The notes beneath the pieces were generated by a model that was not told where the DNA came from, did not search any database, and saw only the letters and a list, made by a program, of their open reading frames with translations. A program made the translations under genes and the position numbers. From the UHGV virus genome UHGV-2169520: 32,664 nt of DNA; one strand, 5' to 3'. Positions 1 through 22,725 of the stretch are shown here, one piece after another. Every line of letters starts with the position of its first letter. Positions within the stretch are counted from its first letter, which is position 1. The DNA comes from a virus.

Positions 1-222
1 ATGTTGTTTTCCCTTCGCACCAGCTTTAAAGCCACTCTTGTTAACGATGATGGTACGCCACGGATCACTGCCGAGGTGAGGAATGTGACACCTGATGATA
101 TCGGGAAGGTGGCGGAACTTGTCAGGGATGTTTTTGGTACTCCTTCCGGTACCTGCCGTTCAGACTCTGCGGCCAGGGTTGACAGGCAGGATGTTAACGC
201 CGGGTGGCTTACGCGCCTCTGA
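1..222 (+). CDS. 3' end of an ORF entering from the left edge; product unknown, possibly host gene flanking the prophage junction
   Basis: Frame open from position 1 to TGA 220-222, followed by hairpin 233-247; start not in window; no motif recognised. Confidence 0.25.
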   Translation: MLFSLRTSFKATLVNDDGTPRITAEVRNVTPDDIGKVAELVRDVFGTPSGTCRSDSAARVDRQDVNAGWLTRL

Positions 223-324
223 ATGATGATGCCCTCACTGGTGAGGGTGACAAAAAAGCCCTCTCAATGGCGGGCAAATCTGGTTTTTTGTTTTGTCTCT
301 ACAGGGAAAGGGCGCCATATCGGC

Positions 325-724
325 CCACCCCAACAACCGGATAGCGGGGAATTTCTCCCCCGCTGCGGTTTCTTACGGTTTACACTGCAAGAACGCCGCA
401 AAACGCGCTCCCCAGATATCAAAGCTGAATTCACATAACGAATCGTGGACCATCCAGATGACCAGGGTTATTGTCAGGCATCAAATGCCAACAATAATCG
501 TTTTTTGCGGTATAGCGCTTGCTCCTTTTACAAAGAGGCGCTAACCTTCCACTTGTCACGGTAGGAAGGGTCAGGCCTCGGTTAAACACAGATGTTTTCC
601 GGGGCCTTTCCACATCCGGCCTTCAGGTTTTCCCTCCGGCCATCAGCCGAAAGGCACCCGTTTCTTTTTGTTGCGGCAATATTTCAGGTGTCAGTTGGGG
701 TGGGCTGTATCTTGTCTGATGCAT
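325..724. repeat. Copy 1 of a ~400-bp structured non-coding element (copy 2 at 2333-2745)
   Basis: Alignable with 2333-2745; 3' ~230 bp nearly identical, 5' part diverged; hairpin 343-364 kept by compensatory changes; substitutions in embedded ORFs show no third-position bias. Confidence 0.6.
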
Positions 725-821
725 AAAAAAATGCCCGCGCTTTGGCGGGCAAAAGACAAGACTTTTCGTTTGTATATCATGGATAATGGACACCCTTCCT
801 GTTGTCAGGTGGCAGGCACCC
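725..821 (-). ncRNA. Candidate small RNA unit B1 (body class alpha)
   Basis: Minus-strand -35 TTGAGA (851-856), 17-bp spacer, -10 TAGATT (828-833); terminator GCCCGCC..GGCGGGC plus U7 (725-750); predicted ~95 nt; no credible ORF. Confidence 0.35.
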
Positions 822-925
822 GTGGTTAATCTACTGTTTTTGTGCTTTTGTCTCAACCCTGAAGTTTTCATGGAAAATCAGGGTTGCTTCATATGTGCCA
901 GGAAGGTGCGGCTATGATAACTGCC

Positions 926-1018
926 AAAAAAAGCCCGCTTTCCGGCGGGCAAAACAGCAATGTGAGTTGTCTGTCATTGATACTGGACAGCCTTCCTGTT
1001 GTCAGGTGGAAGGTACCC
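926..1018 (-). ncRNA. Candidate small RNA unit B2 (body class beta)
   Basis: -35 TTGAGA (1048-1053), 17-bp spacer, -10 TAGATT (1025-1030); terminator hairpin 933-950 plus U-run (926-932 on plus strand); 5' hairpin CCUUCC..GGAAGG. Confidence 0.35.
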
Positions 1019-1122
1019 GTGGTTAATCTACTGTCTTTGTGCTTTTGTCTCAACCCTGAAGTTTTCATGGAAAATCAGGGTTGCTTCATGTGAACCAGGA
1101 AGGTGAGGCGATGGTAACCGCC

Positions 1123-1148
1123 AAAAAAATGCCCGCTTTCCGGCGGGC
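1123..1148 (-). terminator. Intrinsic terminator, minus strand
   Basis: Hairpin GCCCGCTTTCCGGCGGGC 1131-1148 preceded on plus strand by A7 (U-tract on minus strand). Confidence 0.6.
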
Positions 1149-1369
1149 AAAACAAGGAAGTACGGATCATGTATTATTGATTACGAGGCATTCCACCATG
1201 CCCACGTTTAATTTAGCTAGTTTTCATTTTATTCACAATATAGTTACTTATCATATTTATGAACAAAACTGTAATTTCATCTATAGGTATAAGTGATTTG
1301 CATTAACATGTTTCTTCTGTATTGCTGTTGGTTTTCCGATGCTGATATTTATGATACATTCAAGGGCAA

Positions 1370-1575
1370 ATGAGGTTGTTCCACAGAAACGATGTTGAGA
1401 TATTTCTGCTCCAGAAAGGACAAGCTAAAAAAATAAAGTGATATTATGATATGTCAGGGATGTTCAGGCATGTCAGTGTCTTATTAATAAACTCGTTGCT
1501 GCTGTAATAACACCAAAAAAATCAAAGCATAATCTGCATGTTGTTCCTGATGACCCAATAACCACAAAAGAATAA
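1370..1575 (+). pseudogene. Decayed copy of the 71-codon ORF family (intact copy at 3197-3412)
   Basis: ATG 1370 opens MRLFHRNDVEI then frame breaks (stop after 23 codons); C-terminal homologous segment ..RDVQACQCLI..HVVPDDPITTKE present out of frame; same flanking AT-rich region and terminator as the intact copy. Confidence 0.55.
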
Positions 1576-1668
1576 AAAAAATGCCCGCTTTCCGGCGGGC
1601 AAAACAGCAATGTGAGTTGTCTGTCATTGATACTGGACACCCTTCCTGTTGTCAGGTGGAAGGCACCC
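1574..1668 (-). ncRNA. Candidate small RNA unit B3 (body class beta)
   Basis: -35 TTGAGC (1698-1703), 17-bp spacer, -10 TAGATT (1675-1680); terminator hairpin 1583-1600 plus U-run. Confidence 0.35.
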
Positions 1669-1772
1669 GTGGTTAATCTACTGTCTTTGTGCTTTTGGCT
1701 CAACCCTGAAGTTTTCATGGAAAATCAGGGCTGCTTTGTGTGCGCCAGGGAAGGCGCCTCGATGGCAGGCGC

Positions 1773-1799
1773 AAAAAAAATGCCCGTGCTTCGGCGGGC
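1773..1799 (-). terminator. Intrinsic terminator, minus strand
   Basis: Hairpin 1782-1799 (one mismatch) preceded on plus strand by A8. Confidence 0.5.
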
Positions 1800-2026
1800 A
1801 AAATAAGGAAGTACAGGTTACATGTTATTGATAAAGTAGCATTGCTCTGTCCGTCTTTAATCTAACGAGTTTTGAGTTTTTTCACAATATTGTTACCTGT
1901 CATGTTATAGATGAAACTGCAATTTCATCTATAGGTATAAATGATTTGTATTAATGTGTGTCCACTGTTTGTCTGCTTTCTGGTTTTCAGTTGACTGTGT
2001 TTCTGATGAATTCAGGAGGTTGTCTT

Positions 2027-2125
2027 ATGAGGCTGTTCCACAGAAACGATATTGAGATTGAACTGCATTTCTCCTCCGGTGAGGATAAGGTTAAATCATT
2101 GTTGATGAAAAAAACAAAGATTTAA
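2027..2125 (+). pseudogene. Truncated copy (32 codons) of the 71-codon ORF family
   Basis: Strong SD AGGAGG 8 nt before ATG 2027; first 24 codons near-identical to 3197-3268 (2 of 3 differences synonymous) then divergence and early stop. Confidence 0.5.
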
Positions 2126-2194
2126 TTTATTGATATAAAGGATTTGTATCAGCGTATGTCCACGCAGTGACCACATTTTCGAGAGGTAGAGTAA

Positions 2195-2220
2195 GCCCGC
2201 AACATTGCGGGCTTTGTCTT
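2195..2220 (+). terminator. Intrinsic terminator, plus strand
   Basis: Hairpin GCCCGCAACATTGCGGGC 2195-2212 followed by TTTGTCTT. Confidence 0.6.
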
Positions 2221-2264
2221 ATAGTCTGATCACTGTTTCAAGTCGGTGAGGACACCAAAAAGAA

Positions 2265-2298
2265 AACCCGCAGTTTTTATGCTGCGGGTTTGTTTGTT
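2265..2298. terminator. Bidirectional hairpin terminator
   Basis: AACCCGCAG..CTGCGGGTT hairpin 2265-2290 with T-rich tract after it on the plus strand and U-rich tract after it on the minus strand. Confidence 0.5.
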
Positions 2299-2332
2299 CA
2301 TGTCTGTGAGATAGGGTGCCTTATCGACCTTA

Positions 2333-2745
2333 CCCTGGCAACCGATTGACGGGGGATTGCTCCCCCGTCGCGGTTTCCTTACTTCTTACATTGTAAGAAC
2401 GCCGCAAACTCCGCTCCCCAGAAGCTCATCCGTATTTCGCACAGCGAACCGTGCAATATCCAGATGATGAGGATTGCCGTCACGCAGAACGTGATGGCCG
2501 TAAGCGATTTTTGCGACATAGCACTTGCTCCTTTTCCGGAGAGGCGCTAACCTTTCACTTGTCAAGGTAATGCGGTTAGGGCCTCGGTTAAACAGAAATG
2601 TTTTCCGGGGCCTTTCCACATCCGGCCTTCAGGTTTTCCCTCCGGCCATCAGCCGAAAGGCACCCGCGCGTAATTTAACTGTTTCTTTTTGTTGCGGCAA
2701 TATTTCAGGTGTCAGTTGGGGTGGGCTGTATCTTGTCTGATGCAT
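2333..2745. repeat. Copy 2 of the ~400-bp structured non-coding element
   Basis: Alignable with 325-724; hairpin 2348-2369 GACGGGGGA-TTGC-TCCCCCGTC; 15-bp insertion relative to copy 1. Confidence 0.6.
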
Positions 2746-2841
2746 AAAAAAATGCCCGCGCTTCGGCGGGCAAAAAACAAGACTTTTCGTTTGTATATCA
2801 TGGATAATGGACACCCTTCCTGTTGTCAGGGGGAGGTACCC
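2746..2841 (-). ncRNA. Candidate small RNA unit B4 (body class alpha)
   Basis: -35 TTGAGC (2871-2876), 17-bp spacer, -10 TAGATT (2848-2853); terminator hairpin 2754-2771 plus U-run. Confidence 0.35.
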
Positions 2842-2945
2842 GTAGCTAATCTACTCACTTTGTGCCCGCAGCTCAACCCTGAAGTTTTCATGGAAAATCA
2901 GGGCTGCTTTGTGTGCGCCAGGGAAGGCGCCTCGATGGCAGGCGC

Positions 2946-2972
2946 AAAAAAAATGCCCGCTCTCCGGCGGGC
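2946..2972 (-). terminator. Intrinsic terminator, minus strand
   Basis: Hairpin GCCCGCTCTCCGGCGGGC 2955-2972 preceded on plus strand by A8. Confidence 0.6.
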
Positions 2973-3196
2973 AAAACAATGATCTACGTCACATTATATT
3001 GATAACCGGGCATTCCTCCATGCCCATTTTTAATTTAGCCATTTTTCATTTTGTTCACAATATAGTTATCTATCATATTCATGAATGAAATTATAATTTC
3101 ATCTATAGGTATAAATGATTTGTGTTAATATGTTTCTCCTGTCTAACTGTTTTCTCATTTTTCGATACTAGTATTTCTGATATATTCAGGGGGCGT

Positions 3197-3412
3197 ATGA
3201 GATTGTTCCGAAGAAACGATATTGAGATTGAACTGCATTTCTCCTCCGGTGAGGATAAGGTTAAATCAATAAAGGTGAAACTAAGACATGCCCGGGATGT
3301 TCAGGCGTGTCAGTGTCTTATTGATGAACTCGTTGCTGCCGGAGGAACGCCAAAAAAACAAAAATATAATCTGCACGTGGTTCCTGATGACCCCATAACC
3401 ACAAAAGAATAA
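3197..3412 (+). CDS. Small hydrophilic protein (71 aa), function unknown; only intact member of a three-copy family
   Basis: ATG 3197 with G-rich SD; MRLFRRNDIEIELHFSSGEDKVKSIKVKL..; convergent with ogr; AT-rich upstream region with conserved hairpin 3008-3036. Confidence 0.6.
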   Translation: MRLFRRNDIEIELHFSSGEDKVKSIKVKLRHARDVQACQCLIDELVAAGGTPKKQKYNLHVVPDDPITTKE

Positions 3413-3505
3413 AAAAATGCCCGCTTTCCGGCGGGCAAAAAACAATTTAGGTCATATTTCATCATGGATAATTAAATACTTGCCCGTGGTTGCGGGAAAG
3501 TATCT
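3411..3505 (-). ncRNA. Candidate small RNA unit B5 (body class gamma), immediately downstream of ogr
   Basis: -35 TTGAGA (3535-3540) starts 15 bp after ogr stop; 17-bp spacer; -10 TAGATT (3512-3517); terminator hairpin 3419-3436 plus U7; also the likely terminator for ogr. Confidence 0.35.
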
Positions 3506-3554
3506 GCCGTTAATCTACTTGCCTTATGATGTCCTCTCAACCTGATTATTGTTC

Positions 3555-3806
3555 TTAAATATCAAGATTAATCTGAGTATTCCCCCTGTGAGATCCCGGA
3601 AAATCTTCCCACGGTATCCGCTCTGTACCCTGCGGCGACGGGGCGCGTTTTGATGTGAATTTGTTAAAACCCTCCAGTGTGGTAAAGCCGATCCCGCATT
3701 CGAGGTTATTGCACTGGTAGTACTTCAGGCGAACTGTGCCTGAATCATTTTCATTGCGACTGGTGCGGATACGTGCGGATGCACCGCATAGGGGACAACG
3801 GAACAT
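3555..3806 (-). CDS. ogr: Ogr/Delta-family zinc-finger late-gene activator
   Basis: MFRCPLCGASARIRTSR...YYQCNNLECG: C-x2-C...C-x4-C zinc finger matching P2 Ogr; SD AGGAGA 4 nt before ATG. Confidence 0.9.
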   Translation of the reverse strand: MFRCPLCGASARIRTSRNENDSGTVRLKYYQCNNLECGIGFTTLEGFNKFTSKRAPSPQGTERIPWEDFPGSHRGNTQINLDI

Positions 3807-3849
3807 GGCTTCTCCTTATCTGGCTGAGTGGAGATGGCTCATTTTAATT

Positions 3850-4941
3850 TTATCCGCCTGAATCTGCTATCCATTCGGGGATTTTCGCTTCCAGCTCCAG
3901 TTGTGTGGTGAAGCCGCTTTCATCTATGATGTGCTCCACCCTGGCAATAATCCAGTCCTGATTGTCCACCTCGCTTTTAAAACCTGTTACCCTGCCGTGC
4001 ATTTCGGGGTACAGGTCGGCACGACCCCGTGCCAGAGTGATGGAGAATGCCGCTGCTCCCCGCTGTAACTCCTGCCACTTTGCCGCAGCTGCACGTCGTG
4101 CGGTTTCTTCATTCTGGTAAGTCCTGCGCAGAACGTAGACGTTCCCTTCCGCGCCTTCCATGTAATCACCCTCCCGGCTGCTGCTCTTCTCCTGTTTCTG
4201 TTTCCCGGCTTCCCTGCGTCGCTTCACGTTCACTTTTTTCTTTTGCCCGAACTTCAGATCGAGCCAGTGCGCCCGGACCCCCGTATACGCATCACGGTCA
4301 GCAATGCGAAAGCGGTGACTGTCGCCGCTGCTGCGGGTAATGGCGAACGAAGGCAGGGCTCTTCCGTCCGGCCCGGTTCCGCCACCCGGCAGAATGAATA
4401 ACAGGCTGCCGTTTTTTACGGTGGCAATCGCACCCAGCATTTCAGCCATGCGGGTCAGGAAGGATATATCGCTCTCTTCGGTCTGGTCAGCGTGGTCAAT
4501 TTCGATATCCATGAGGATTTCGCTTATCTGTGTCTTCAGGCCGTAGCGGTGAGCGATGGCTGACACAACCTGTTTTACGGTCACGTCGTGCCAGGATACC
4601 TCCCGCCTCACGTTGAACTCTTCCCGAAAATCTGCGCTGCTGGCGGTGATGATCAGTTTATCTGGAGGTCCTTCCCACGCAACCTCATCAACGACGTAGG
4701 TGCCCTTGTTAACCAGTGATTCTCCTCGCCAGCCAATCATCACTCTCAGGCGTGCGCCACGTGGTGGCAACTGTAACTGCCCGTCCGTATCGTCAAGGGT
4801 GAGGGTGACGCGGTCTGCCTCAAAGGCCCGGTTATCCGTCAGGGTCAGCGTCATGAGTCGCTCTGTGAGGTTTGCCAGTGTGTTGTTGTTGATGGTGATG
4901 TCGATATCCGGTGACGGAACGGTAACTGACAGCTCTTTCAT
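3850..4941 (-). CDS. D: Tail protein D
   Basis: P2 gpD-like over full length; start set at ATG 4941 (SD AGGAGAG) rather than the ORF-track start 4977, which lacks an SD. Confidence 0.85.
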   Translation of the reverse strand: MKELSVTVPSPDIDITINNNTLANLTERLMTLTLTDNRAFEADRVTLTLDDTDGQLQLPPRGARLRVMIGWRGESLVNKGTYVVDEVAWEGPPDKLIITASSADFREEFNVRREVSWHDVTVKQVVSAIAHRYGLKTQISEILMDIEIDHADQTEESDISFLTRMAEMLGAIATVKNGSLLFILPGGGTGPDGRALPSFAITRSSGDSHRFRIADRDAYTGVRAHWLDLKFGQKKKVNVKRRREAGKQKQEKSSSREGDYMEGAEGNVYVLRRTYQNEETARRAAAAKWQELQRGAAAFSITLARGRADLYPEMHGRVTGFKSEVDNQDWIIARVEHIIDESGFTTQLELEAKIPEWIADSGG

Positions 4942-5005
4942 GGTGTTCTCTCCTGGTGCGTTCTGTAATGGTTTCATGCACCGTAGCGGCGTTGAATGGC
5001 TGTTT

Positions 5006-5029
5006 TGTTGTCGCTGTCAGGAGACAACA
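5006..5029. promoter_or_regulatory. Candidate Ogr-type activator site in the divergent D/FI intergenic region
   Basis: TGTTGTC-N10-GACAACA, containing TGT-N12-ACA (5009-5026), centred ~55 bp from plausible start sites on either side. Confidence 0.45.
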
Positions 5030-5102
5030 TCAAAGGGGTGAGATTACCGCGTGTGTGGGTAATGATTACGCAAAATCAACCAGCCAGACAAGGGTGAAAC
5101 AT

Positions 5103-6386
5103 ATGAGTGAAACACGCTTTCATGGTGCGCGCGTAAGGGAAAGTACCGGCCTTGCCACCGCCATTAATGATGTGGATTCCAGTGTTATTGGTATTGTGGC
5201 TACGGCAGATGACGCGGATGAAACTCTGTTCCCGCTGAACAAACCCACACTGCTGACCCGCGTCAGTGATGTGCTGGGTAAGGCCGGCACAAAGGGGACG
5301 CTTTACAAATCGCTTAAGGCTGTCGCCGACCAGGTGAGCACGAAGGTGATTGTGGTGCGCGTTCCTGATGCCAGTTCTCAGGGCGCCCCGGATACAGGAG
5401 TTACATCATTCGGTCATCTGGATCCTGAAGACAGGGCATTTTTTGGTATTGATGAGTCTGAAGATGCACATCCTGTATACCCACACAAAACGCAGGACCA
5501 GTATGTCATTGGTGGCACGGATGGCGACGGTAATTATACCGGTATGTATGCACTTCTGATAGCTGAACAGGATGATGCCATCGGTTACCGTCCGCGCATC
5601 ATCGCAGCTCCCGGACTGGATACTGAAGCTGTCACAAAATCCCTGTGTGTAATTGCAGAAAAACTTCGCGCATTTGTCTACGCGGGCTGTCACAACTGCA
5701 AGAAGCCCGCTGATGCAATCAGCTACCGCGCCAGATTTAACGAGCGCGAACTTATGCTGCTCTGGCCTGACTTCATCGCCTATAACCCGAAATCCGGCGC
5801 TAATGAGGTCTTCCCGGCTGCGGCGTACGCCTGCGGTTTACGTGCACGTATTGACCACGAACAGGGCTGGCATAAATCGCTGTCCAACGTGCCGGTAAGA
5901 AATGTGCTGGGTATTTCCAGCCCGGTGTTCTGGTCCCTTCAGTCCGAAGACAGCGATGCCAACAATCTCAACAACAAGGAAATCACTACCATCATTTGCC
6001 GTAACGGTTTCCGCTTCTGGGGCAACCGTACGCCGGAAACGAAGGCGTATATCTTTGAGGTGTACACGCGAACCGCTCAGGTGCTGGCTGATTCCATTGC
6101 GGAAGCGCAGTTTGAAACGATTGATGCCCCGCTGACCCCTGCTAATGTGAAAGACGTGTTAAGCGCAATTCGCGCAAAACTGGATGCGCTGGTTACGTCA
6201 GGACGTCTCATTGGTGCGGAGTGCTGGTATGACGTGGTGGATAACAGCACCACGGAACTTCGTCAGGGACGCGTGCGTATCCGCTACAAGTACACGCCCG
6301 TTCCGCCGCTTGAGGATATGGAACTTTACCAGACGTTTACTGATGAATTCTTTGGTCCTGCATTTGCGACGCTTGGAGGTGCTTAA
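5103..6386 (+). CDS. FI: Tail sheath protein FI
   Basis: MSETRFHGARV.. P2 gpFI-like; ATG 5103 preferred over upstream in-frame start. Confidence 0.9.
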   Translation: MSETRFHGARVRESTGLATAINDVDSSVIGIVATADDADETLFPLNKPTLLTRVSDVLGKAGTKGTLYKSLKAVADQVSTKVIVVRVPDASSQGAPDTGVTSFGHLDPEDRAFFGIDESEDAHPVYPHKTQDQYVIGGTDGDGNYTGMYALLIAEQDDAIGYRPRIIAAPGLDTEAVTKSLCVIAEKLRAFVYAGCHNCKKPADAISYRARFNERELMLLWPDFIAYNPKSGANEVFPAAAYACGLRARIDHEQGWHKSLSNVPVRNVLGISSPVFWSLQSEDSDANNLNNKEITTIICRNGFRFWGNRTPETKAYIFEVYTRTAQVLADSIAEAQFETIDAPLTPANVKDVLSAIRAKLDALVTSGRLIGAECWYDVVDNSTTELRQGRVRIRYKYTPVPPLEDMELYQTFTDEFFGPAFATLGGA

Positions 6387-7481: not shown

Positions 7482-10400
7482 TATACGGGTCGCCTTCAGC
7501 GCTGTTGACAGGCTGACCCGTCCCACCGAAAACGCCCGTCGCATGATGGGCCAGCTTGGCGACTCCATACAGAGAACGCAGGGTGCGATCAAAAACCTGG
7601 AACGCCACGCCCGTTCATTTGATCGCGCCCGCGAGGCTGCAAACAAGGCCGGAAACGGCATTGTCAGGGCGCAACGCCAGTTAAGCGCACTTCAGCAAAT
7701 TCAGCGCGCCGGAACCGTGCTGTCTGACAAACAGAAAAAGCTGATGAATGATTTGAGCCTCAAACTTGAGCGTCTCAATGAGGTCCGTGCGCGTGAAGTT
7801 CAGCGAATGCGCGAACTGGGTGGTGAGCTGCGGCGCCACGGTATTGCGCTTTCCGGCAGTGACAACACCATTCAACAGGCCATACGGCGAACACAGCAAT
7901 ACAACGACCAGCTGGAACGCGAACGGCAGGCGCTGGCACGTGTCACGCAGGCACGCCAGCAATATTCCCGTGCTCAGGAGACGGCGGGAAAACTTAAAAC
8001 GGTCGGACTTACGGCGGTTGGTACGGCGGCGGCAGGCGGCTATGCGGCCGGACGTTTCCTGCAACCGGCGGTCAGTTTTGGTAAGGAGATGTCGCGCGTC
8101 CAGGCGCTGACCCGTATTGACAAAAACAGTCCGCAGTTTAAGGCGCTGCGCGAACAGGCCATTAAGCTGGGCTCTGAAACGCAGTTTACCGCCGGTGATG
8201 CTGCCAGCGGTCAGGCGTTCCTTGCCATGGCCGGCTTCACACCACAGGCCATACAGGCGGCGCTACCCGGCGTGCTTGATCTGGCAATGGCTGCAGGGAT
8301 GGACCTGGGACAGACTGCCGATATCAGTTCGAATATCCTCACACAGTTTGGTCTGTCCGCTGACCAGATGGATCGCGTGGGTGACACGCTGGCCGCCACC
8401 TTCACACGAACCAATACGGATCTCCGTTCGCTGGGTGAAACCATGAAGTACACGGGGCCGGTTGCAGCTTCACTTGGCCTGTCCCTTGAACAGGCGGCAG
8501 CCATGACGGGTGTCCTTGGCAGTGTGGGGATCCGTGGAAGTGATGCAGGTACGGCGCTGCGTGCCAGTCTGTCACGTCTGGTTGATCCGCCGAAGGCCGC
8601 TGCAATGGCACTGAAAGAGCTTGGCGTGGAGACGCAGGATGCTTACGGGAACATGCGCCGGATGGAAAATATCCTGAATGAGCTGTACCAGGCCACCCGA
8701 AAATACGGTAATGCCGCGCAGGTCTCCTTTTTCAGGGCTATTGCCGGGCAGGAGTCCTATGTTTCCCTGATGAATCTTGTCACTGCGGCGGGGGAAAATA
8801 ATCTTCCCCGTCTTACGCAGGAGATTGAACTGGCCACCGGGGAACTTAATCAGACTGCCCGTGTTATGGCTGATAACCTGGACGGTGACCTGAAATCACT
8901 GAACAGCGCATGGGAAGGACTGCGTATCCGTGTCGCTGACCTCGTTGACGGGCCGCTGCGTTCTGTCACGCAGTCGTTCACCCGGGTTATTGCGAAAGTC
9001 ACCGCGCTGGCTCAGGCGCACCCTGAACTGACAAAACAACTGCTGATTGCCGGTGGTGTACTGCTGGCTGCGGTTGCGGCCATGGGGGCGCTGTCACTTG
9101 CCACTGGTGTGTTGATGGGGCCGCTGGCAAAACTGCGTCTTGGGTTTGCCCTGCTGACCGGCACATCCGGCCTCGGTCGTGCGCTGCCGTTACTGACGCA
9201 GCTGCGCGGCGTACTCGGTGGTCCGCTGGGCGGTATCGGTGGCTGGCGCGTGCTGTTTGTCGGTATCACCTCCGGTGCCGGACGGTTTGCTGCACTGCTG
9301 GGCGTAGTTGCGGGGCGGCTTCGTGGTGTGCAGGCGGGACTTGGCGCGCTGCGTGGTGGTCTGCTGGCTGCGTTCACTTCACCTGGCGGCGCACTGATTT
9401 CACTGGGGCGCGGTATCGGAATACTGGCGCTCAGACTGTCAGGTCTGCCCGCACTGTGGGGGATGGTGAGTGGTGCGGTGGGCGCACTTGGCGGGGCGCT
9501 GGGTTTTCTGTTAAGTCCGGTGGGCCTTGTGGTGGCGACACTGGTCGGTGCGGCAGTGCTTATCTGGCGGCACTGGGACCATTGTTTGAGTATGTCGGGC
9601 AGACAATCGGGCGTGTGTGGCAGTGGTTCGTGGATTTGTTCGCGCCGGTAAGCACAACAAAGGATGAGCTGGACAAGTGCACGGAAGCCGGGCGGACGTT
9701 CGGGCAGAAGGTCGGGGAGTTTATCAGCAATCTGGTGACCGGTCCGGTTACGCTGCTGATTGACTCATTAACCCGGGTGCTGGAAAAACTCGGGCTGATT
9801 CCGTCAGCGGTTGAGCGCGCCCGGAAAAAAGCGGAAGAACTAAAACAGAAGGAGTTGCTGAACGAGAAAGCTGCCATGCTTCTGGCGGATGTTAACGTCA
9901 TTAATCCGCCGAAAAAGGACGAGGATAAAAAAGACGGCGAAAAACCCAAAGGGGGGCAACCACCCCTGACGGGGGAGAATACCGGCACTATGCGCCGCCT
10001 GAACAAAATCGTCGATAACACCGGTGGTCTGCTGGATGAGGCGAAACAGGCGAAAAAACGCGCTGGTCCCGGCGATATTATCTTTAAAAACCTGCCGGAA
10101 GCGCTGGCCGTTCGTGGTGAGTGGAAGGAGGAACGCTTTAACCGCGCAGCTTCCCTGTTACCGGGTAGTGTCAGTGAGCCACCTGTCAGACTGCCGCAGG
10201 TGCCGTCGGTCAGTGTGCCTTCGTTGCCACCGCTGCCAGCGCCACCGCCTGTCAGTGTTTCGCCGCTGATATCCACCACGGCGAACGTGTCGCCGGTCGT
10301 GAAGCCGGTGGTGTCCGTGAATAATGTGCCGGTTATTCCTCCGGTCGTCCGTCCGGTACTGTCCGGTAATATTACGCCAGTGGTTCCGCCGGTGATCAAA

Positions 10401-10694
10401 CCGGTTATGACTCACGATGTCATGCCGACGTTCTCCCCGCTAATGACACCAGTGATGGCGGCAACATCCCGTCCGGTGGTTGAGGCTGTGCGCCAGCCCA
10501 TATCCCCCGCATCGCCCCGACCGCGCCAGAGTGAGGCGGCACCATGGGGATTAACTGGCGAACTGCATATTCACCTGCATGATGTTCACACGCAAAACCC
10601 GCGCGAACTGGCAAAAATGGTGGGTGATGCCGTCCGTGCGGAAATGGAACGCCGTATCCGCCAGACAGTCGGTAGTTTCCGTGACAGAGATTAG
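7468..10694 (+). CDS. T: Tail tape measure protein; reading frame broken near 9566-9572 (possible pseudogene or sequencing indel)
   Basis: P2 gpT-like coiled N-terminal half and Gly/Ala/Leu-rich segment; two overlapping ORFs (7432-9651 frame 1, 9456-10694 frame 3); protein sense switches at ..AAVLIW / ALGPLFEYVGQ. Confidence 0.85.
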
Positions 10695-10705: not shown

Positions 10706-11194
10706 ATGATGATGATTTACGGCATGTTTGTTTTTGAGTTGCGTACGCTGCCTCATCAACAACTGCAACATAATAAAACCTGGCGCCACGTTAAAAATGA
10801 ACGCATCAATCGTTCGGCCAGCTGGCAGTATATCGGGGCGGGTGACGACCAGATCACGTTGTCCGGTGTGCTTTATCCCGAAATTACCGGCGGTGAGGTT
10901 TCCCTCAGCCTTTTAACGACGCAGGCTTACACTGGTCGCCCATGGCCGCTGATTGACGGTGTGGGGCAGATATACGGCATGTATGTGATAACGGCTGTCC
11001 GCACAACGCGAAGCGAACTTGACCGCCACGGTAAGGCCAAAAAAATTGAGTTCACTGTCAGTCTGGAACGCTGTGATGAGGATTTGCGGGAGAGTATGGC
11101 CTCGTCGCCGGTGTCTGATATGCTTTCGGGAATGAAAGGGAAGTTAAGTTCGGTCTGGAATACCACAGTAAGCGGCGTAAATGATCTGATGTGA
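10706..11194 (+). CDS. U: Tail protein U
   Basis: MMMIYGMFVFELRTLPHQQLQ.. matches P2 gpU; SD AGGAG upstream. Confidence 0.9.
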   Translation: MMMIYGMFVFELRTLPHQQLQHNKTWRHVKNERINRSASWQYIGAGDDQITLSGVLYPEITGGEVSLSLLTTQAYTGRPWPLIDGVGQIYGMYVITAVRTTRSELDRHGKAKKIEFTVSLERCDEDLRESMASSPVSDMLSGMKGKLSSVWNTTVSGVNDLM

Positions 11195-11264
11195 AGGTAA
11201 TGTGCCGCATTCTTGCGGCACCTGCATGATGAATTATTTATGAATGCCCGTTCCTTTTCCCCGC

Positions 11265-11876
11265 TCATTCCATTTCTGGTGGTGTTTCCGGCCAGCTTAT
11301 TTCAGGCTCCGTGCTGATATCCAGTGCGTTCAGCTCGTCGATATAATCCAGCACGGCATTCAGTTTTGCCGTTTCTTCTGGTGTCAGACTGCGACCTGCC
11401 CGCAACTTAAGGTTGATGAGGTCGATGGACTTCATCGCCTGATCCACCCGTTCCTTGCGTTGCTGTCTGGCAACCTCCAGCTCTTCGGCTTGCTGCCGTT
11501 CTGTATCGGTTACCCACGCCTCACCGTTCCAGGTATCCCATGGTGTGGCAGGCTGTTTTGTCGTTGTCCCTTCCGGGTAGTCACCTGGTTGGGTAATCTG
11601 GACCGGATTACCGTTCTCTGTGCTGTATACCGTCTCTCCACGATGATCGGGGACATACTCCCACCCGTCCAGCGTGGACGTCCGGCAAATCACGTAACCC
11701 GGCATTGCCTCTGGCGGGGCATCGGCGCATGAATGTGCCGGGGTACCCACCCCCAGGGCGAGATACTCCACAGAGGATGAGGTGTATTCCCGGGTTTCCT
11801 CATCATAGTGATATACAGTGATATCGCCTGCGAAAGTGGCGATACCGTTTTCATCCAGAACTGCAGTGTTACTCAT
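11265..11876 (-). CDS. G: Tail fibre assembly protein
   Basis: P2 gpG-like; start overlaps H stop (TAATG). Confidence 0.85.
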   Translation of the reverse strand: MSNTAVLDENGIATFAGDITVYHYDEETREYTSSSVEYLALGVGTPAHSCADAPPEAMPGYVICRTSTLDGWEYVPDHRGETVYSTENGNPVQITQPGDYPEGTTTKQPATPWDTWNGEAWVTDTERQQAEELEVARQQRKERVDQAMKSIDLINLKLRAGRSLTPEETAKLNAVLDYIDELNALDISTEPEISWPETPPEME

Positions 11877-14119
11877 TAAACTGCCCTCACAATATAATTA
11901 AAAGCGATATTGCGCGGTCTGATCGCTATCCATCTGTCTTTTTCATTACTCACCAGCTTACCGGCTCTGGCTATTGCCCATCTGTCAACTGGTTTTGTGC
12001 CGTACAGGATGCCGTTACCGGTTCTGGGTTGATCAGGGGTTATGTTTATGATGTCGTTATCATGTGATGCAAATGAAATCCCTGCCTGAATATCTGCACC
12101 TCCCGCTACGCCGTGGTACGCCTGTATGGCGGTACAAATATATGTTGCTTCCTGTGTGGATAACAATAAGCGTCCCCTGTCAATCATTCGCAGGNNNNNN
12201 NNNNCATCCCATCCACGAATAAATTCCCCGCGCAAATCTGGTAGCCTGAGGTCAGGGTAGGCCACCGCCAGTTTTGGGTATTTTGTACGCGTGAATGCGG
12301 CACCGTTGCACTGTAACCACCCCTCAGGTGGTCTTGACGAAGGCCACGGAACGGGTACGCCAACTGGCAGCGTCGAGCCTTCTCCTAAACCAAAGTAATC
12401 AAGAATATCTTTTATGCTTTGTTTACCCATGATGACGCGGGCAACAGACGAAAAAACAGGGGCGTCTGTGATCTGAGCCCAGCGATGAGTGTGGGCTGCC
12501 GAGGCTTTGCTGTTGGCAAGGTCATACGCAGCTTTAACAGCTTTTGGTGTGGCCGCCAGCGTTTCGGAATTGCTGTTTGTGGCGCTGCTTAGCTGTACGA
12601 TGCCTTTGCGTCCGGTGGTTGCATCCTGTCCTGTATACTTGCTCGTCAGCATATCGTGTAAGGCTTTAACCGCTTTGGGGGTGGCGGCCTCAGTCTCTGA
12701 CTCACTGTTTGTGGCACTGCTCAGCTGTACGGTGCCTTTTGCCGTCAGCGAGGCTGATGGCACNNNNNNNNNNNNNNNNNNNNNNNNNNNNNNNNNNNNN
12801 NNNNNNNNNNNNNNNNNNNNNNNNNNNNNNNNNNNNNNNNNNNNNNNTGTGGCCGCCAGCGTTTCGGAATTGCTGTTTGTATCGCTGCTCAGCTGTACGA
12901 TGCCTTTGCGTCCAGTTGTTGCATCTGTGTTTGTCACCTCCACCCACTCTGACCATGGGCCGTTACCGTTAAAGTTTCCGGTAACTGTCCTGATAAATTT
13001 TCGTGGCGGATCCCAGCTCGTGTATTCATGCTGGCAGAATCCCCATGCACCAACACGGATGCGTAACTCTCCTGCCTTCTCTACAGGATAGTTTCTGTCT
13101 GTTCTCGCACCTGAGTCACTCTGCTGGTAATAATCTCCCGCGTCTTCCTTACGCCCCAGAGTGTTCAGGTCTGTTTCCCCCAGGGATGTTGTTGGCTTCA
13201 CGAACGCCATGCTCAGTGCATCACTTACTGCCTTCGGTGTGGCCGCCAGTGTTTCGGAATTGCTGTTTGTGGCGCTGCTCAGCTGTACGATGCCTTTGCG
13301 TCCGGTGGTTGCATCCTGTCCTGTATACTTGCTCGTCACCATATCGTGTAAGGCTTTAACCGCTTTGGGGGTGGCCGCCTCAGTCTCTGACTCACTGTTT
13401 GTGGCACTGCTCAGCTGTACGGTGCCTTTTGCCGTCAGCGAGGCTGATGGCACACCAGTTATCTGATTCCACGGGTGGGTGTGGCTGGCGGGTGCTTTAC
13501 CGGCTGCAAGGTCATATGCAGCCTTGACGGCCTTCGGTGTGGCGGCCAGTGTTTCAGAGGTGCTGTTTGTGGCGCTGCTCAGTTGGGTGAATCCTTTTTC
13601 TGTCAGTGTCGCGTCAGGGTGGTTACGGGAACGTGCGTGTTCCGCTATTTTCTCATCAATGTAGTCCGTGGTCGGCAGAATTGTTGTTGTGTCCATGACC
13701 AGTTCCACCACGGCGTCGGAGGTGACGGTGATTACTGCACGGAATATCTGCGCCCGCCCTGAACCTTCCTCTCTGGTGGGCTTGTAACTTTCAGCGGTAT
13801 TTCCTACTGCAATCATTGTACCTGTATCATCAAACACACCAATTTCACGCACCCAGAATCCGCCGGTTTCAGGAGGAATGACCAGTTCGGCGATGAGGCG
13901 GTTCGGGTTCTCCGGGTCGGTGAAGACGCGGTTGACAGACTGGCGCCAAACCTCATTGTAAAGCGATGTCTGGTTTTTCTGCGGCTGACGAAGCTCTCCA
14001 TTGCCGTCCCCTACAGCCATGTGCGTAAGGCGTACAGGTCTACCGCCAGGCGCCGTTGTTGCGGCCAGCTTTGCCAGCCCGATGTCGGTGATAAGGGTTC
14101 TGAATTTTCTCGTGCTCAT
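11876..14119 (-). CDS. H: Tail fibre protein; interrupted by two N gaps, internal repeats
   Basis: N-terminus MSTRKFRTLITDIGLAKLAA.. matches P2 gpH; repeated ..ATTGRKGIVQLSSATNSNSETLAATPKAVK.. blocks; C-terminal PDLRGEFIRGWD motif; N runs 12195-12204 and 12764-12847. Confidence 0.85.
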   Translation of the reverse strand: MSTRKFRTLITDIGLAKLAATTAPGGRPVRLTHMAVGDGNGELRQPQKNQTSLYNEVWRQSVNRVFTDPENPNRLIAELVIPPETGGFWVREIGVFDDTGTMIAVGNTAESYKPTREEGSGRAQIFRAVITVTSDAVVELVMDTTTILPTTDYIDEKIAEHARSRNHPDATLTEKGFTQLSSATNSTSETLAATPKAVKAAYDLAAGKAPASHTHPWNQITGVPSASLTAKGTVQLSSATNSESETEAATPKAVKALHDMVTSKYTGQDATTGRKGIVQLSSATNSNSETLAATPKAVSDALSMAFVKPTTSLGETDLNTLGRKEDAGDYYQQSDSGARTDRNYPVEKAGELRIRVGAWGFCQHEYTSWDPPRKFIRTVTGNFNGNGPWSEWVEVTNTDATTGRKGIVQLSSDTNSNSETLAATXXXXXXXXXXXXXXXXXXXXXXXXXXXXVPSASLTAKGTVQLSSATNSESETEAATPKAVKALHDMLTSKYTGQDATTGRKGIVQLSSATNSNSETLAATPKAVKAAYDLANSKASAAHTHRWAQITDAPVFSSVARVIMGKQSIKDILDYFGLGEGSTLPVGVPVPWPSSRPPEGWLQCNGAAFTRTKYPKLAVAYPDLRLPDLRGEFIRGWDXXXXLRMIDRGRLLLSTQEATYICTAIQAYHGVAGGADIQAGISFASHDNDIINITPDQPRTGNGILYGTKPVDRWAIARAGKLVSNEKDRWIAIRPRNIAFNYIVRAV
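12195..12204. other. Assembly gap (10 N) inside tail fibre gene H
   Basis: Run of N. Confidence 0.95.
12764..12847. other. Assembly gap (84 N) inside tail fibre gene H, within the repeated block
   Basis: Run of N flanked by near-identical repeat copies. Confidence 0.95.
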
Positions 14120-14122
14120 GGT

Positions 14123-14686
14123 TCAGTCTTCCGGGTAAATGGTGATGATGTCGCCGTCGTAACCTGCGGCAGCGGCGTAAATGGCACCGTGTATTTCCTG
14201 GATGATACTAAGCCCCACGAGGTGGCGGCTGACGGGGCGCGCATCGGCAATCAGACGCTCCATTTCTTCATGCAGCTCTTCACTTACTCCGGTTTCAAGT
14301 GTGCCAATCTCAATGGTGAAGGTCCCGGGCGAGCCGTCAAACTCCCACCATTCTGATACACGGATGAGGTAGCCCAGTGGTTCAACGATGCGGCGGAGTG
14401 CACTGATGGTCCCTTTGTGGCGATGTATCATCCATGCGTCCCGAATCACCTGTCGCCTGGTCTCTTCCGGCCAGTTGCGGTCCCAGCTGTCAACGGAACA
14501 TGCCCATGCAAGGTAGGGCAGGAGGTGAGCAGGGCAGCGGTCCGGCGACCACAGGGTGTCGGCGTCCACCGGTATGGTACTGATGCGTACTCCTGTCGCC
14601 TCTGTGGCGCGCATGAATGGCCCTGCGGACGGTGGAAGCAGTGATGTACTGTGCTGTGCGCTGTCTGTTTTTTTCCTGTCACTCAT
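14123..14686 (-). CDS. I: Baseplate protein I
   Basis: P2 gpI-like; start set at ATG 14686 (SD GGAGG, overlaps J stop). Confidence 0.8.
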   Translation of the reverse strand: MSDRKKTDSAQHSTSLLPPSAGPFMRATEATGVRISTIPVDADTLWSPDRCPAHLLPYLAWACSVDSWDRNWPEETRRQVIRDAWMIHRHKGTISALRRIVEPLGYLIRVSEWWEFDGSPGTFTIEIGTLETGVSEELHEEMERLIADARPVSRHLVGLSIIQEIHGAIYAAAAGYDGDIITIYPED

Positions 14687-15575
14687 TGCGTCCTCCTTCG
14701 CTGATGCTGAATGTGGTACATCTGGCTGCCTGAGTGTCACTGATGGTGATGTTCTGCGTGGGTTTTATGACCTCAACGCGCTGGACACCGTGAACATGCA
14801 GCGCTGCAGTGATGGCTGACAGGGCCACGTCCTGACCGATACGGCCCTGGTCTGCCAGCCATGCACGGAAAGCGGCGTCAGCGGCCGCAAGCATGGGTTC
14901 AGACTCCGGCCCTGGATAAAAATACAGCTTCGCTTCCATTACCCAGTTCACGATGGTAGCACTCTGCACAGTCAGGCGGTCGGCAACCGGGCGCACGTTC
15001 TCGGCATTCAGGGCGGTGCGCACCGTGTTCAGTAACGCCTCACCGGCGGTGCCGTCACCGTCTGCTGACAGGATGGAGACGGTGACTGTGGCCGGTGACG
15101 GGCTGATGGCGCGCGCATCACGGACAAGACCGCTTGCGCTCCGGGCAAAATACTCATACGCGCCGGACGGTCCGGCCACACTCAGGCCGTCCCAGGCTGA
15201 CTGGGCACGCAGACGCAGCGATGTGTCGCTTTCCATCACTGCTTCCGTGGTATCAGTGGCCGGATGAATGACCAGGCGGCGGGTGTTGTTGTTGGCGGCC
15301 AGATTGTCCAGGTCACTGCCCCGGCTGTGGCTGAGCATGCAGGCGCGGGCGGCTTCATTGATGCGCTGGCGAAGCAGCATTTCACGAAAGGCCATGGCCT
15401 GGGAAATGATGTTCAATGGCTCGGATTCCAGAGTAAGGGCACGGGTGACGGCGGCGCGGTATTCTTCCGGGAAGGAGCTCACCATCATGGTTTTAATGTC
15501 TGCCAGGATGGACTCAAAATCCGGCTGCGCGATGATGGCCGGTTCCGGTAACTGTGACAGGTCAACGGAAGGCAT
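14679..15575 (-). CDS. J: Baseplate protein J
   Basis: P2 gpJ-like over full length; SD GAGGGAG. Confidence 0.9.
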   Translation of the reverse strand: MPSVDLSQLPEPAIIAQPDFESILADIKTMMVSSFPEEYRAAVTRALTLESEPLNIISQAMAFREMLLRQRINEAARACMLSHSRGSDLDNLAANNNTRRLVIHPATDTTEAVMESDTSLRLRAQSAWDGLSVAGPSGAYEYFARSASGLVRDARAISPSPATVTVSILSADGDGTAGEALLNTVRTALNAENVRPVADRLTVQSATIVNWVMEAKLYFYPGPESEPMLAAADAAFRAWLADQGRIGQDVALSAITAALHVHGVQRVEVIKPTQNITISDTQAARCTTFSISEGGRNE

Positions 15576-15578
15576 GAT

Positions 15579-15929
15579 TTACTCCCTCAGGGTGATACTG
15601 AATGTGATGTTCTGCATGGTTTCGGTGATGATGCCGGATAACGTCACCACGGCGCGTCCGCCAGCCCGCCAGTTCACATCGACGTTCTGCAGTGCTATAC
15701 GGGGTTCATGGCGCGCCAGCGCAGTCACCGTGGCGCTCATGCACTGTAAACGCGTGGTGTCGTTCATGGGCTCGTCGATGAGGTCCGGTAACAGGCTGCC
15801 GTATTCGCGGCGCATCACCCGGCTGCCTGGCGGTGTGGTCAGGATATCCCGCACGCTGTTTTTCAGGTGTTCGCTGTCGCTCAGCGTGCCGGTTCCCTGC
15901 GGGTTCATCCCCCTGTAAACAGCGGTCAT
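15579..15929 (-). CDS. W: Baseplate wedge protein W
   Basis: P2 gpW-like; start set at ATG 15929 (ATGA overlap with V stop; SD GGGAGG). Confidence 0.85.
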   Translation of the reverse strand: MTAVYRGMNPQGTGTLSDSEHLKNSVRDILTTPPGSRVMRREYGSLLPDLIDEPMNDTTRLQCMSATVTALARHEPRIALQNVDVNWRAGGRAVVTLSGIITETMQNITFSITLRE

Positions 15930-16507
15930 TGCGGGCCTCCCGTGGTGCCCGGGCCCGTCCTGACGCCACCGTGGGTGTGCGTATGAACGGTGATACCGTT
16001 GGATGTCAGGCTGCCGCCGCTGTGGGATATGCTGCCGCGCATCTCGCCGCCGTTCTGCACCTCCAGGGTGGCGGTGATAAGTTTGCGGGTACACACCACC
16101 TCCGACGTGTCCAGGGTGATGCGCGTGTCGGCCTGAATGCTGGCTGTTTTAATCCCCTTAACCTCCAGTGCACCGGCGTCTGCATCGTAGCGGAATACCG
16201 CACCGTCCGGTGCTGTCATGATGATTTCCTTCAGTGTGCTGCCCGGTGCCGGGATATCATCGCTCCAGAGGCTGCCGATGATTATCGCGGTTTCGGGATT
16301 ACCACCGATACAGACGAACGCCACCTGTTCACCGGTGGCTGGCGGCACCCAGACACTGAACGCGCCCGCCCGCGCGGTGCTCCAGCGAAGCCAGCCTGTC
16401 TCCAGTCCGCCACTGCGCACCCGGACCTCCCAGGTCTGCGGGTTCACGTCGAAAATCACGCCGGTTCTGATGATGTTGCTGATAAGGCGCATTAATTCCG
16501 CGTTCAT
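15926..16507 (-). CDS. V: Baseplate spike protein V
   Basis: P2 gpV-like; ATGA overlap with upstream S. Confidence 0.9.
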   Translation of the reverse strand: MNAELMRLISNIIRTGVIFDVNPQTWEVRVRSGGLETGWLRWSTARAGAFSVWVPPATGEQVAFVCIGGNPETAIIIGSLWSDDIPAPGSTLKEIIMTAPDGAVFRYDADAGALEVKGIKTASIQADTRITLDTSEVVCTRKLITATLEVQNGGEMRGSISHSGGSLTSNGITVHTHTHGGVRTGPGTTGGPQ

Positions 16508-17109
16508 GCCACAGCCCTCGCGATATTGTCCATAATGATACGCTGAATAAGTCGTTCATCTGCCGGTGTTATTCCAAGAAGTTCACGGGCCGGATAATCC
16601 GTATACATCCCTGCGGCCACCCGGTCGCGCTCCCCGAACTGGTGAACGCGGGCAATGCGTGCCGCCACGCCGCTGTAGCCCACCGTCACGCCTGATGCGT
16701 CCGCCTTCACTTTCAGATAACGGGCCGTGCGCAGCTTCGCAAACATCGGCACCGTTTTTGTGGTGTCACGGTTGATGCGGCGTGTCCTGATTTCAAGGAA
16801 ACGGAGGATATCACTCCGGTAAAAGGTACGTATGCCGCTCCGGTCTTCATCCCAGCCGGTGATGGTCTGGCCGTATTTTCCTGAACCGTGATGCCAGTTT
16901 TTCAGGGTGCGGTTCTGGTTTTGCCAGATAAAGCTGATGCGCTCCTGAAGGCGTGATATACGGCGTTTACGGCGTGTCCACACCGAACCGTCCGGCGCTT
17001 TCTGGGCGCGCATCCGGCTCTGGTTCACGCGCCGCAGCTCCTTACCCACATGCGCGGCAATGCGCTTCACTGCCTGCGGGCTGGTTGCCAGCCGGATATT
17101 GACAAACAT
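16504..17109 (-). CDS. S: Tail completion / virion morphogenesis protein S
   Basis: Position between R and V; start chosen at ATG 17109 with SD AAGGA; exact start uncertain. Confidence 0.7.
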   Translation of the reverse strand: MFVNIRLATSPQAVKRIAAHVGKELRRVNQSRMRAQKAPDGSVWTRRKRRISRLQERISFIWQNQNRTLKNWHHGSGKYGQTITGWDEDRSGIRTFYRSDILRFLEIRTRRINRDTTKTVPMFAKLRTARYLKVKADASGVTVGYSGVAARIARVHQFGERDRVAAGMYTDYPARELLGITPADERLIQRIIMDNIARAVA

Positions 17110-17175
17110 GTTACTCATTCCTTCAGCGGGAACGAGGTTACGGTATCTCAGTTTCCCCATAACATTCTCCGCGTG

Positions 17176-17640
17176 TTATCCGGTGACAATGTTCCACGTC
17201 ACATCCTCCAGAATGTGTGACCAGTCGCCGTCCTGCGGGATGCGTGATTTCGGCTCCGGTAGATGTTCTGTCATGAGGGTGCCGTCATCCCTGCGGGTGA
17301 CGCGCACGCGTTCACGTAACGGCAGCTCAAACAGCACGTCCGCGCTGTCGTCGTCGTTAATGGCCGCCGTGAACTGAATATCGTTGTTGCGCTCAGGATT
17401 AAGCAGCAACTGCGGCTGGTTCTCTGCCAGCCAGACAATCAGTGGAAGCGTCAGGTTGTCCAGATCGCCCGTGTAGTCCATCACGAACATCACCAGCCGG
17501 TAGTTGTACACGAACGTCGGCGTCTCGCCGGTGGTCTCTATCCCGCCACGTTCAATGAACACGGTGAACTTTTCCGGGTTGGCCCTGCACCACCGGCACG
17601 CTGTACTCATGTGTGTGCTCAGGGATTTACTTTTCAGCAT
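17176..17640 (-). CDS. R: Tail completion protein R
   Basis: MLKSKSLSTH.. resembles P2 gpR MLKPDSL..; start at ATG 17640. Confidence 0.8.
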   Translation of the reverse strand: MLKSKSLSTHMSTACRWCRANPEKFTVFIERGGIETTGETPTFVYNYRLVMFVMDYTGDLDNLTLPLIVWLAENQPQLLLNPERNNDIQFTAAINDDDSADVLFELPLRERVRVTRRDDGTLMTEHLPEPKSRIPQDGDWSHILEDVTWNIVTG

Positions 17641-17911
17641 GCGCCTCTCCGTTCTGTCGGTTGAGTCTCCGGCGCTCCATCGCCTCAATGGCCCGTTTGT
17701 CTGCGTTGCAGGTTTCCAGTGCATCCAGGAGGCTGTCGCTCCATATCCCGATATTTCCCCAGGTGGGGTGTTCAGGGAAGGGCGGGGGCCGTGTTCCCGT
17801 CGTCAGTCCCGCCGGAATGAACCGGAAGGAGGGCGCGGGCAGTGGCGCGTTTCGTGTGTTCGCGCAGCCGGTCAGTAAAACGGTGGTCAGGAAGAGTGCC
17901 GGCGCACTCAT
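17627..17911 (-). CDS. lysC: Outer-membrane spanin (Rz1/LysC-like lipoprotein)
   Basis: Lipobox LTGC after hydrophobic leader; Pro-rich; starts inside lysB in another frame and extends past it. Confidence 0.75.
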   Translation of the reverse strand: MSAPALFLTTVLLTGCANTRNAPLPAPSFRFIPAGLTTGTRPPPFPEHPTWGNIGIWSDSLLDALETCNADKRAIEAMERRRLNRQNGEAHAEK

Positions 17912-18179
17912 CCGTCGCAGCAATTTCGCGAAGCTGTTCACGTCTGACTTCTCCTTCCTGTGCCCTTTTCTGTCGCTGCGTCATCACCTCATGCAGTACG
18001 GCGGAGGCATCGCTGATAACGGCGGAGGACTCACGCAGCGCCCGGCTGTATTCGCCCAGCTGCTGCTCTGCGGCGTCACGTGCCTCACCGGCACGCCCCA
18101 GCCGGTATGACTGCCACATGGCCGCCGCCGTCAGGGTGGTCACCATGAGGGCAACAATCACGGCGTAAACCGGTCTCAT
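17772..18179 (-). CDS. lysB: Inner-membrane spanin (Rz/LysB-like)
   Basis: N-terminal TMD MRPVYAVIVALMVTTLTAAAMW then charged coiled region; ATGA overlap with endolysin stop; SD GGAGG. Confidence 0.75.
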   Translation of the reverse strand: MRPVYAVIVALMVTTLTAAAMWQSYRLGRAGEARDAAEQQLGEYSRALRESSAVISDASAVLHEVMTQRQKRAQEGEVRREQLREIAATDECAGTLPDHRFTDRLREHTKRATARALLPVHSGGTDDGNTAPALP

Positions 18180-22571: not shown

Positions 22572-22639
22572 TGTCGGGCCCTCGTGATGATCGTTTGTCT
22601 CATGATGGCAAAACGGGGCAGGGACAGACAAAGTGCGTT

Positions 22640-22663
22640 TGTTGTAAGCGAATGCCGACAACA
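22640..22663. promoter_or_regulatory. Candidate Ogr-type activator site in the divergent O/P intergenic region
   Basis: TGTTGT-N12-ACAACA, containing TGT-N12-ACA (22643-22660); same extended arms as the site at 5006-5029. Confidence 0.45.
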
Positions 22664-22725
22664 CCGGGCATGGCAGGAGGCCTGTAAGGGGTGAGTAAAC
22701 TGCCTGAATCACATGAGGGGGAGAA

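Follow-up and report, generated by a model that had tools for sequence, protein, structure and literature searches.

The window analyzed here, a stretch of 32,664 nucleotides from virus genome UHGV-2169520, is a P88-like Escherichia coli prophage of the P2 family (Peduoviridae), about 74% identical to phage P88 and to other Xuanwuvirus members. Positions 3500-5700 match, at 100% identity, the chromosomes of several E. coli isolates from chickens and humans, and this stretch is present in 31 of 5426 complete genomes. In the late region (Table 1), the minus-strand genes ogr and D, the former adjoining D on its downstream side, diverge from the plus-strand genes FI, FII, E, T and U, an order that is the same in the complete genomes of phiT5282H, 3LV2017 and P88. 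The sole late-region rearrangement with respect to P2 is the inversion in place of the FI-U block, and the position and orientation of D and ogr relative to the O-to-G genes are those of P2. Two extra ORFs, both on the plus strand, are absent from P2: one of unknown function between T and U (9456-10694; phrog_17114/5431), which overlaps the end of T, and a 162-aa ORF without a family match after U (11244-11732). Beside U, P88 has a gene for a DNA invertase together with tail-fibre genes in inverted orientation (positions 25416-27564 of P88), whereas the corresponding place in the window is arranged differently, with G at 11265-11876 next to the 162-aa ORF. A run of N (masked or unresolved bases) lies within the tail-fibre gene H, at about 12764-12847.

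Table 1. Late genes of the prophage and predicted elements of their control.
Feature	Position	Strand	Basis
Terminator-like hairpin and T run after ogr, likely end of the D-ogr unit	3418..3437	-	Terminator scan
ogr homologue, predicted late activator, Cys4 zinc finger, 83 aa	3555..3806	-	PF04606 Ogr_Delta, E = 4.9e-14
Probable own promoter of ogr, -10 TAAAAT(G), 3846 to 3840 with the G	3841..3846	-	Similarity to P2
Gene D, tail/baseplate hub protein, 363 aa	3850..4941	-	phrog_52, E = 7e-148; PF05954 Phage_GPD
Predicted D transcription start, within about 1 nt	~4961	-	-10 and P2 promoters
Predicted D promoter, extended -10 TGAAACCAT, hexamer AACCAT (4973 to 4968)	4968..4976	-	Conserved TGnnAnnnT, read 4976 to 4968
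Predicted Ogr-type activator site, 24-bp dyad TGTTGTC-N10-GACAACA, centre 5017.5	5006..5029		Sequence, conservation, P2 register
-35-like GTGAGA of the predicted FI promoter, 17 bp upstream of the -10	5038..5043	+	Spacing read from sequence
Predicted FI promoter, -10 AATGAT	5061..5066	+	A5062, A5065 and T5066 invariant; xAxxAT form
Predicted FI transcription start, within about 1 nt	~5073	+	-10 and P2 promoters
Gene FI, tail sheath, first gene of the FI-FII-E-T-U unit	5103..6386	+	phrog_23, E = 7e-119; sheath Pfam domains
After FI: FII, E, T, unknown ORF, U	U 10706-11194	+	Family searches
G back to O	11265 to 22571	-	Family searches
Predicted O start	about 22595	-	Geometry compared with P2
Predicted O promoter, extended -10 TGCCATCAT, read 22610 to 22602	22602..22610	-	Conserved in relatives; centre offsets as for the D element
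Second predicted Ogr-type site, TGTTGT-AAGCGAATGCCG-ACAACA	22640..22663		Between O (ATG 22571, minus) and P (ATG 22726, plus)
Predicted P promoter, -10 TAAACT	22696..22701	+	Offset 45-50 from the centre; TAAACT/TAATCT kept in relatives
Predicted P start	about 22708	+	Geometry compared with P2
P and Q	22726-25532	+	Family searches

The predicted product of the ogr homologue scores 52.4 bits against PF04606 (cut-off 26.3), shares 42% identity with P2 Ogr over 53 aa and presents CxxC and CxxxxC motifs. The 43-bp gap between D and ogr contains TAAAATG, the annotated -10 signal of P2 ogr (TAAAATG, 23996-24002), and it is probable that ogr keeps a promoter of its own, as in P2. The terminator scan detected no minus-strand terminator between D and ogr; a promoter serving D would probably read on into ogr too, and such read-through would make a positive feedback loop. 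Beyond ogr, positions 1-3440 are ORF-poor and made up of repeated modules, with eight direct-repeat families (for example, a 174-nt unit present four times) and an ORF for a Hok-like peptide (2379-2519, minus), at the place where relatives annotate a 'MokW-like host killing' gene. At the other end of the window, the early/immunity region gives two minus-strand Rfam matches at gathering level, to C4 antisense RNA (31431-31518, 79 bits) and to isrK (31554-31629, 62 bits), which suggest that this P2-like prophage has a control element based on RNA, of the P1/P7 c4 type.

The gap between D and FI occupies exactly 4942-5102 (161 bp), from the D ATG at 4941, preceded by a GGAGAG ribosome-binding site, to the FI ATG at 5103. 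Small ORFs have been annotated within this gap in P88 and Chuche, and we regard them as spurious, given how many indels the gap contains. A single motif match lies in the gap, and it is the palindrome reported in the earlier note, which can be read directly as TGTTGTC (5006-5012), GCTGTCAGGA (5013-5022) and GACAACA (5023-5029). Its core half-sites are GTTGT (5007-5011) and ACAAC (5024-5028), the TGT-N12-ACA motif lies inside it as described (TGT 5009-5011, ACA 5024-5026), and it stands in the same register as the annotated activator sites of P2 and 186. A scan of 4942-5102 for consensus sigma-70 promoters found none, as expected for activator-dependent promoters.

The search for further TGT-N12-ACA sites had a divided outcome. 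The short motif is not enriched in the window (8 found versus 8.6 expected) and, since it carries no signal, it was dropped as a lone search motif for a longer one. The 12-base motif TGTTGT-N12-ACAACA, on the other hand, has exactly two perfect matches, 5006-5029 and 22640-22663, where about 0.002 would be expected, and both fall in divergent late-gene gaps, the second in that between O and P, which is the only other such gap of the window. The family-derived pattern GTTGT-N12-ASAVC, that is, GTTGT-N12-A[C/G]A[A/C/G]C, matches just these two sites in the window, with 4 strand matches against 0.41 expected, a count reached by none of 100 shuffles. A relaxed-motif match at 25645-25668 was dismissed, as it falls within the 3' end of an ORF and between genes that converge, and matches with three mismatches at 17385 and 17472 were rejected as candidates for a pV-type site because they are inside an R-like gene and far from gene starts; the motif search of the window found no third site of the pV type.

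These counts bear on whether the dyad might be no regulatory protein site at all, and instead a chance palindrome or an RNA or DNA hairpin acting as a terminator or attenuator. Inverted repeats of 7 bp with a 10-bp spacer are indeed not rare in general (4 in the window versus 2.0 expected), and the terminator scan picks up a weak hairpin beside a T run at 4985-5004. However, the recurrence of the exact 12-base motif between O and P argues against chance, and, the flanking genes being divergent, no transcript enters the site, the stem of which is neither G+C-rich nor followed by a proper T run. Relatives, moreover, keep the half-sites and lose their complementarity (AGAAC or AGACC opposite GTTGT), and we consider an origin of this kind hardly credible. 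The palindrome might also be the operator of another phage or host regulator, such as the immunity repressor, a Cox-like protein or a host factor, given that many dimeric regulators typically use palindromes. This we judge very improbable: the half-sites and their 12-bp spacing match the annotated Ogr and B sites of P2 and 186 in register, a cognate Ogr/Delta gene is present, and the motif appears at two late-gene junctions only, the early/immunity region of the window matching neither TGTTGT-N12-ACAACA nor the consensus.

For the comparative analysis, 91 loci were collected: 80 from IMG/VR with D relatives, 10 GenBank phage loci and the window. D and FI are divergent in all 91, and this shared arrangement is hence the norm in P88-like phages and related genera rather than a peculiarity of the prophage in the window. 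The gaps between the two genes comprise 60 distinct sequences, from which 16 representatives with less than 93% identity were drawn, spanning phages from several genera that belong with Escherichia, Citrobacter, Enterobacter, Klebsiella and Serratia. Of the 161 gap columns, 19 are invariant in the 16 representatives, the remaining gap being poorly alignable, and these consist of eight columns in the site, four in a D-side TGnnAnnnT element, G5040, three in the FI -10, two in the FI ribosome-binding site (GG) and A5079. Within the site, the invariant columns are GTTGT (5007-5011), A5024, A5026 and C5028, and the 12-bp spacer is free of indels. The D-proximal half-site, TTTTGTTGT, is invariant in the relatives, and the FI-proximal one is weaker in most of them (AGAAC, AGAAT or AGACC), so that symmetric binding and equal activation in the two directions are not assured.

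On the D side, the earlier note had taken TACGGT (4985 to 4980) as the -10, an assignment that the comparison does not sustain. With this hexamer, transcription would begin near 4973, at a distance of just about 44.5 bp from the dyad centre; neither P88-type nor Klebsiella relatives conserve the hexamer, and in the closest relative its key A is a G. The conserved -10 is TGAAACCAT, of which T4976, G4975, A4972 and T4968, the minus-strand TGnnAnnnT, are invariant in the 16 representatives; a -35 is absent on this side. The start predicted from this element would leave a 20-nt leader that includes the GGAGAG sequence. An ATG at 4977 was rejected as the D start, since its reading frame agrees with that of D in the window and P88 but not in Klebsiella relatives; the conserved 'CATG' corresponds to the TG of the -10 element, and the predicted transcription start lies downstream of this ATG.

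The FI-side -10, which had previously seemed less clear, becomes evident as AATGAT once the relatives are aligned. The associated -35 is weak: in the -35-like element G5040 is invariant and T5039 and A5041 are mostly conserved (xTGAxx). Transcription from the predicted FI start would yield a 30-nt leader containing the ribosome-binding site. The string AAGGGGTGAG is found at both 5034-5043 and 22686-22695, downstream of the two sites at differing distances (5 and 23 nt), overlapping the FI -35 in one case and abutting the P -10 in the other, and its recurrence is probably a coincidence.

The spacing of these elements is more constant than the sequence around them. With offsets counted away from the dyad centre, 58 of the 60 distinct regions have the D-side TGnnAnnnT beginning at offset 41; the two others, both window-type sequences, have it at 42, and the D-side -10 in the lineage of the window lies 1 bp further from the centre than in those 58. 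For the FI -10, the starting offset is 44 in 59 regions, the exception having 45. By contrast, the D start codon lies anywhere from 76 to 135 bp from the site across the 60 regions, with diverged sequence in between. The D-side -10 is thus tied to the site and not to the gene, as would be expected if the promoter depended on an activator bound there.

For the comparison with known promoters, P2 and 186 data were taken from the GenBank feature tables (NC_001895 and NC_001317), and the window was compared with P2 by offset from the site centre, the O-P region being too diverged for MAFFT alignment. The A(-11) and T(-7) of the P2 promoters lie at offsets 45/49 in PO and PP, with the start at 56, and at 46/50 in PF, with the start at 57-59, and the annotated P2 starts lie 7 nt after T(-7). 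In the window, the corresponding offsets are 46/50 for D, O and P and 45/49 for FI. The predicted starts are 112 bp apart for D and FI and 113 bp apart for O and P, and the annotated starts of P2 pP and pO are separated by 111 bp. Likewise, the site centre would be placed at about -56.5 for D and -55.5 for FI, the annotated P2 values being -55.5 for pO and pP and -57.5 for pF.

The main competing account of these data is that the site activates the FI promoter only, and that D, together with ogr by read-through, is transcribed from an activator-independent extended -10 promoter that adjoins the site by chance. Promoters with an extended -10 can function with neither a -35 nor an activator, and the TG of the D-side element is invariant, which could confer such activity. 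Furthermore, the well-conserved half, TGTTGT, is distal to FI, in the orientation seen in P2 PF, PV and PO, and basal expression of D and ogr could help to begin the late programme. Against this stand the spacings described above, in which the D-side -10 keeps its distance to the site within 1 bp in 60 relatives while its distance to the D start codon shifts by some 60 bp, and the symmetry of the two -10 elements, which at offsets 45/49 on both sides mirror each other exactly about the dyad centre in 58 of these 60. In addition, TGnnAnnnT recurs with an unchanged offset in the O promoter, which in P2 has a counterpart annotated as activator-dependent, and the hexamers AACCAT and GCGACCAT match the consensus poorly. 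We hold a site acting on FI only to be unlikely.

A further line of evidence for a site read by the prophage's own activator comes from comparing the two junctions within genomes. In each of five complete or near-complete genomes, the sites between D and FI and between O and P are the only ones at gene junctions, other matches to the relaxed pattern being few and isolated, and a pV-type site was found in none of them. Within each genome the weaker half-site is identical at both loci, although it differs between lineages and the spacers are unrelated: it is ACAAC in the window and in 3LV2017, AGAAC in P88, and AGACC in phiT5282H and Kp4845-1. This co-variation, seen in five genomes with partly shared ancestry, probably reflects a single lineage-specific protein that reads both sites. 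In one IMG/VR relative, L014, the D gene of which is 93% identical, the site between D and FI is TGTTGTAAGCGAACGGTGAGAAC; it carries the left spacer AAGCGAA of the O-P site of the window instead of that of the window's D-FI site. The two sites may have exchanged sequence, or spacer positions 7-9 may be subject to a preference (types CGC and AAG).

Late promoters of the Ogr/Delta/B-dependent class require both the activator and the alpha subunit of RNA polymerase (they are rpoA109-sensitive), and P2 Ogr is established to act from about -55 on the sigma-70 RNA polymerase via this subunit. Taken together, the results lend support to the proposal of the earlier note that one Ogr-type dyad, lying about 55 bp from both start points, serves D and FI; the support comes from the presence of the ogr gene, the conservation of the site and of both -10 elements, the P2-like geometry and the precedents annotated in P2 and 186. 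It seems reasonable to postulate, with a probability of roughly three in four, that the dyad is a site of the Ogr homologue shared by two divergent late promoters, and on the present sequence comparison we regard this as the best explanation. According to this model, the prophage's own Ogr-family zinc-finger activator would bind the dyad and from there, as a single upstream site common to both, would activate two late promoters placed back to back. One of them, PD, would use the extended -10 TGAAACCAT to transcribe D from near 4961 and probably on into ogr, and the other, PFI, would use the -35-like GTGAGA and the -10 AATGAT to transcribe FI-FII-E-T-U from near 5073, the site centre being located some 56 bp upstream of each predicted start, which is the position of Ogr activation in P2. 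The sequence of the site, its rarity, conservation and geometry, and the presence of a cognate activator gene are what the analysis shows, whereas binding of the activator, both start points and the dependence of both promoters on the activator are what we infer here. The genes O and P would be run by the same design from 22640-22663, and the phage thus appears to run four late units from two palindromic sites.

The earlier note had also suggested that the dyad would let D keep its late expression after the inversion. The shared site on which this idea is based is upheld, but the inverted part is the FI-U block and not D. The dyad symmetry of the upstream element could have allowed the whole FI-U operon to invert without loss of control. 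We may then tentatively envisage, as a possibility falling somewhat short of a firm proposal, that in P88-like phages and related Peduoviridae the late regulon has collapsed to two palindromic two-way sites governing four late units (P-Q, O to G, FI to U and D, with ogr), that their symmetry let FI-U invert under control, that D gained a promoter feeding back on ogr, and that, as the in-step changes of the weaker half-site at both loci (ACAAC, AGAAC, AGACC) would imply, the specificity of the activator co-evolves with its two sites.

If it holds, the model would show how the essential tail gene D stays under late control in the many P2-family phages with an inverted FI-U block, and it would constitute a clean natural example of a symmetric activator site that tolerates the inversion of an operon. 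It also provides concrete predictions of promoters and start points for a prophage group that is common in E. coli, Klebsiella, Enterobacter, Citrobacter and Serratia, which may be of practical use in annotation and in the engineering of P2-like phages, tailocins and satellite-helper systems. Our literature search found no published promoter analysis of P88-like phages or their relatives, and neither the P88 paper nor a 2026 paper on the diversity of P2-like phages contains anything on promoters, ogr or the inversion.

Sharing of one activator site by divergent promoters has several precedents. When two promoters stand back to back, the symmetric dimer of CRP can reportedly activate both from a single upstream site, according to work of the Busby laboratory; CRP belongs to an unrelated protein family, and the parallel is a mechanistic analogy only. 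Much closer is P2 itself (NC_001895, 3057-3087), where one site is annotated as 'activator binding site; pO, pP promoters'. This site is a partly dyad-symmetric TGTTGT-N12-xCAxC centred 55.5 bp from each of two back-to-back starts, and each promoter has its -10 at 45/49 and a poor -35, a geometry that the D-FI region copies. The O-P site of the window is its direct counterpart. The D-FI site differs from it in lying at the junction of the tail genes D and FI and not of the head genes P and O, in being a perfect 7+7 palindrome where the P2 site is only partly symmetric (TGTTGT / CCATCC), and in that its starts are predicted whereas those of P2 are annotated. In P2, moreover, D comes last in the pF operon and lacks a separate promoter. 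In phage 186 (NC_001317, 3798-3817), one site for the Ogr homologue B, TGTTGT-N12-CCAGTC, is annotated for 'activation of pV and p12 promoters', which are divergent, but again at a head-gene junction, and the P2 order J(FI)...F(U) D B is retained there on one strand. In Smp131, one TGT-N12-ACA site read on both strands has been assigned to PP' and PO' (PMC3931495).

As regards the operon served, the nearest counterpart is P2 pF (activator site 17555-17583), which drives the same operon head, FI, from a site GGTTGT-N12-CCAACC centred at about -57.5, with GAAAAT as the -10. This promoter is unidirectional and has fun(Z), not D, upstream, whereas in the window the inversion of FI-U makes the control region abut D. 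A shared dyad for two back-to-back late promoters is hence an established feature of the P2 family at the head-gene junction. The D-FI site leaves the current understanding of Ogr-type activation unchanged and would represent a second instance of this known mechanism, at the junction created by the FI-U inversion.
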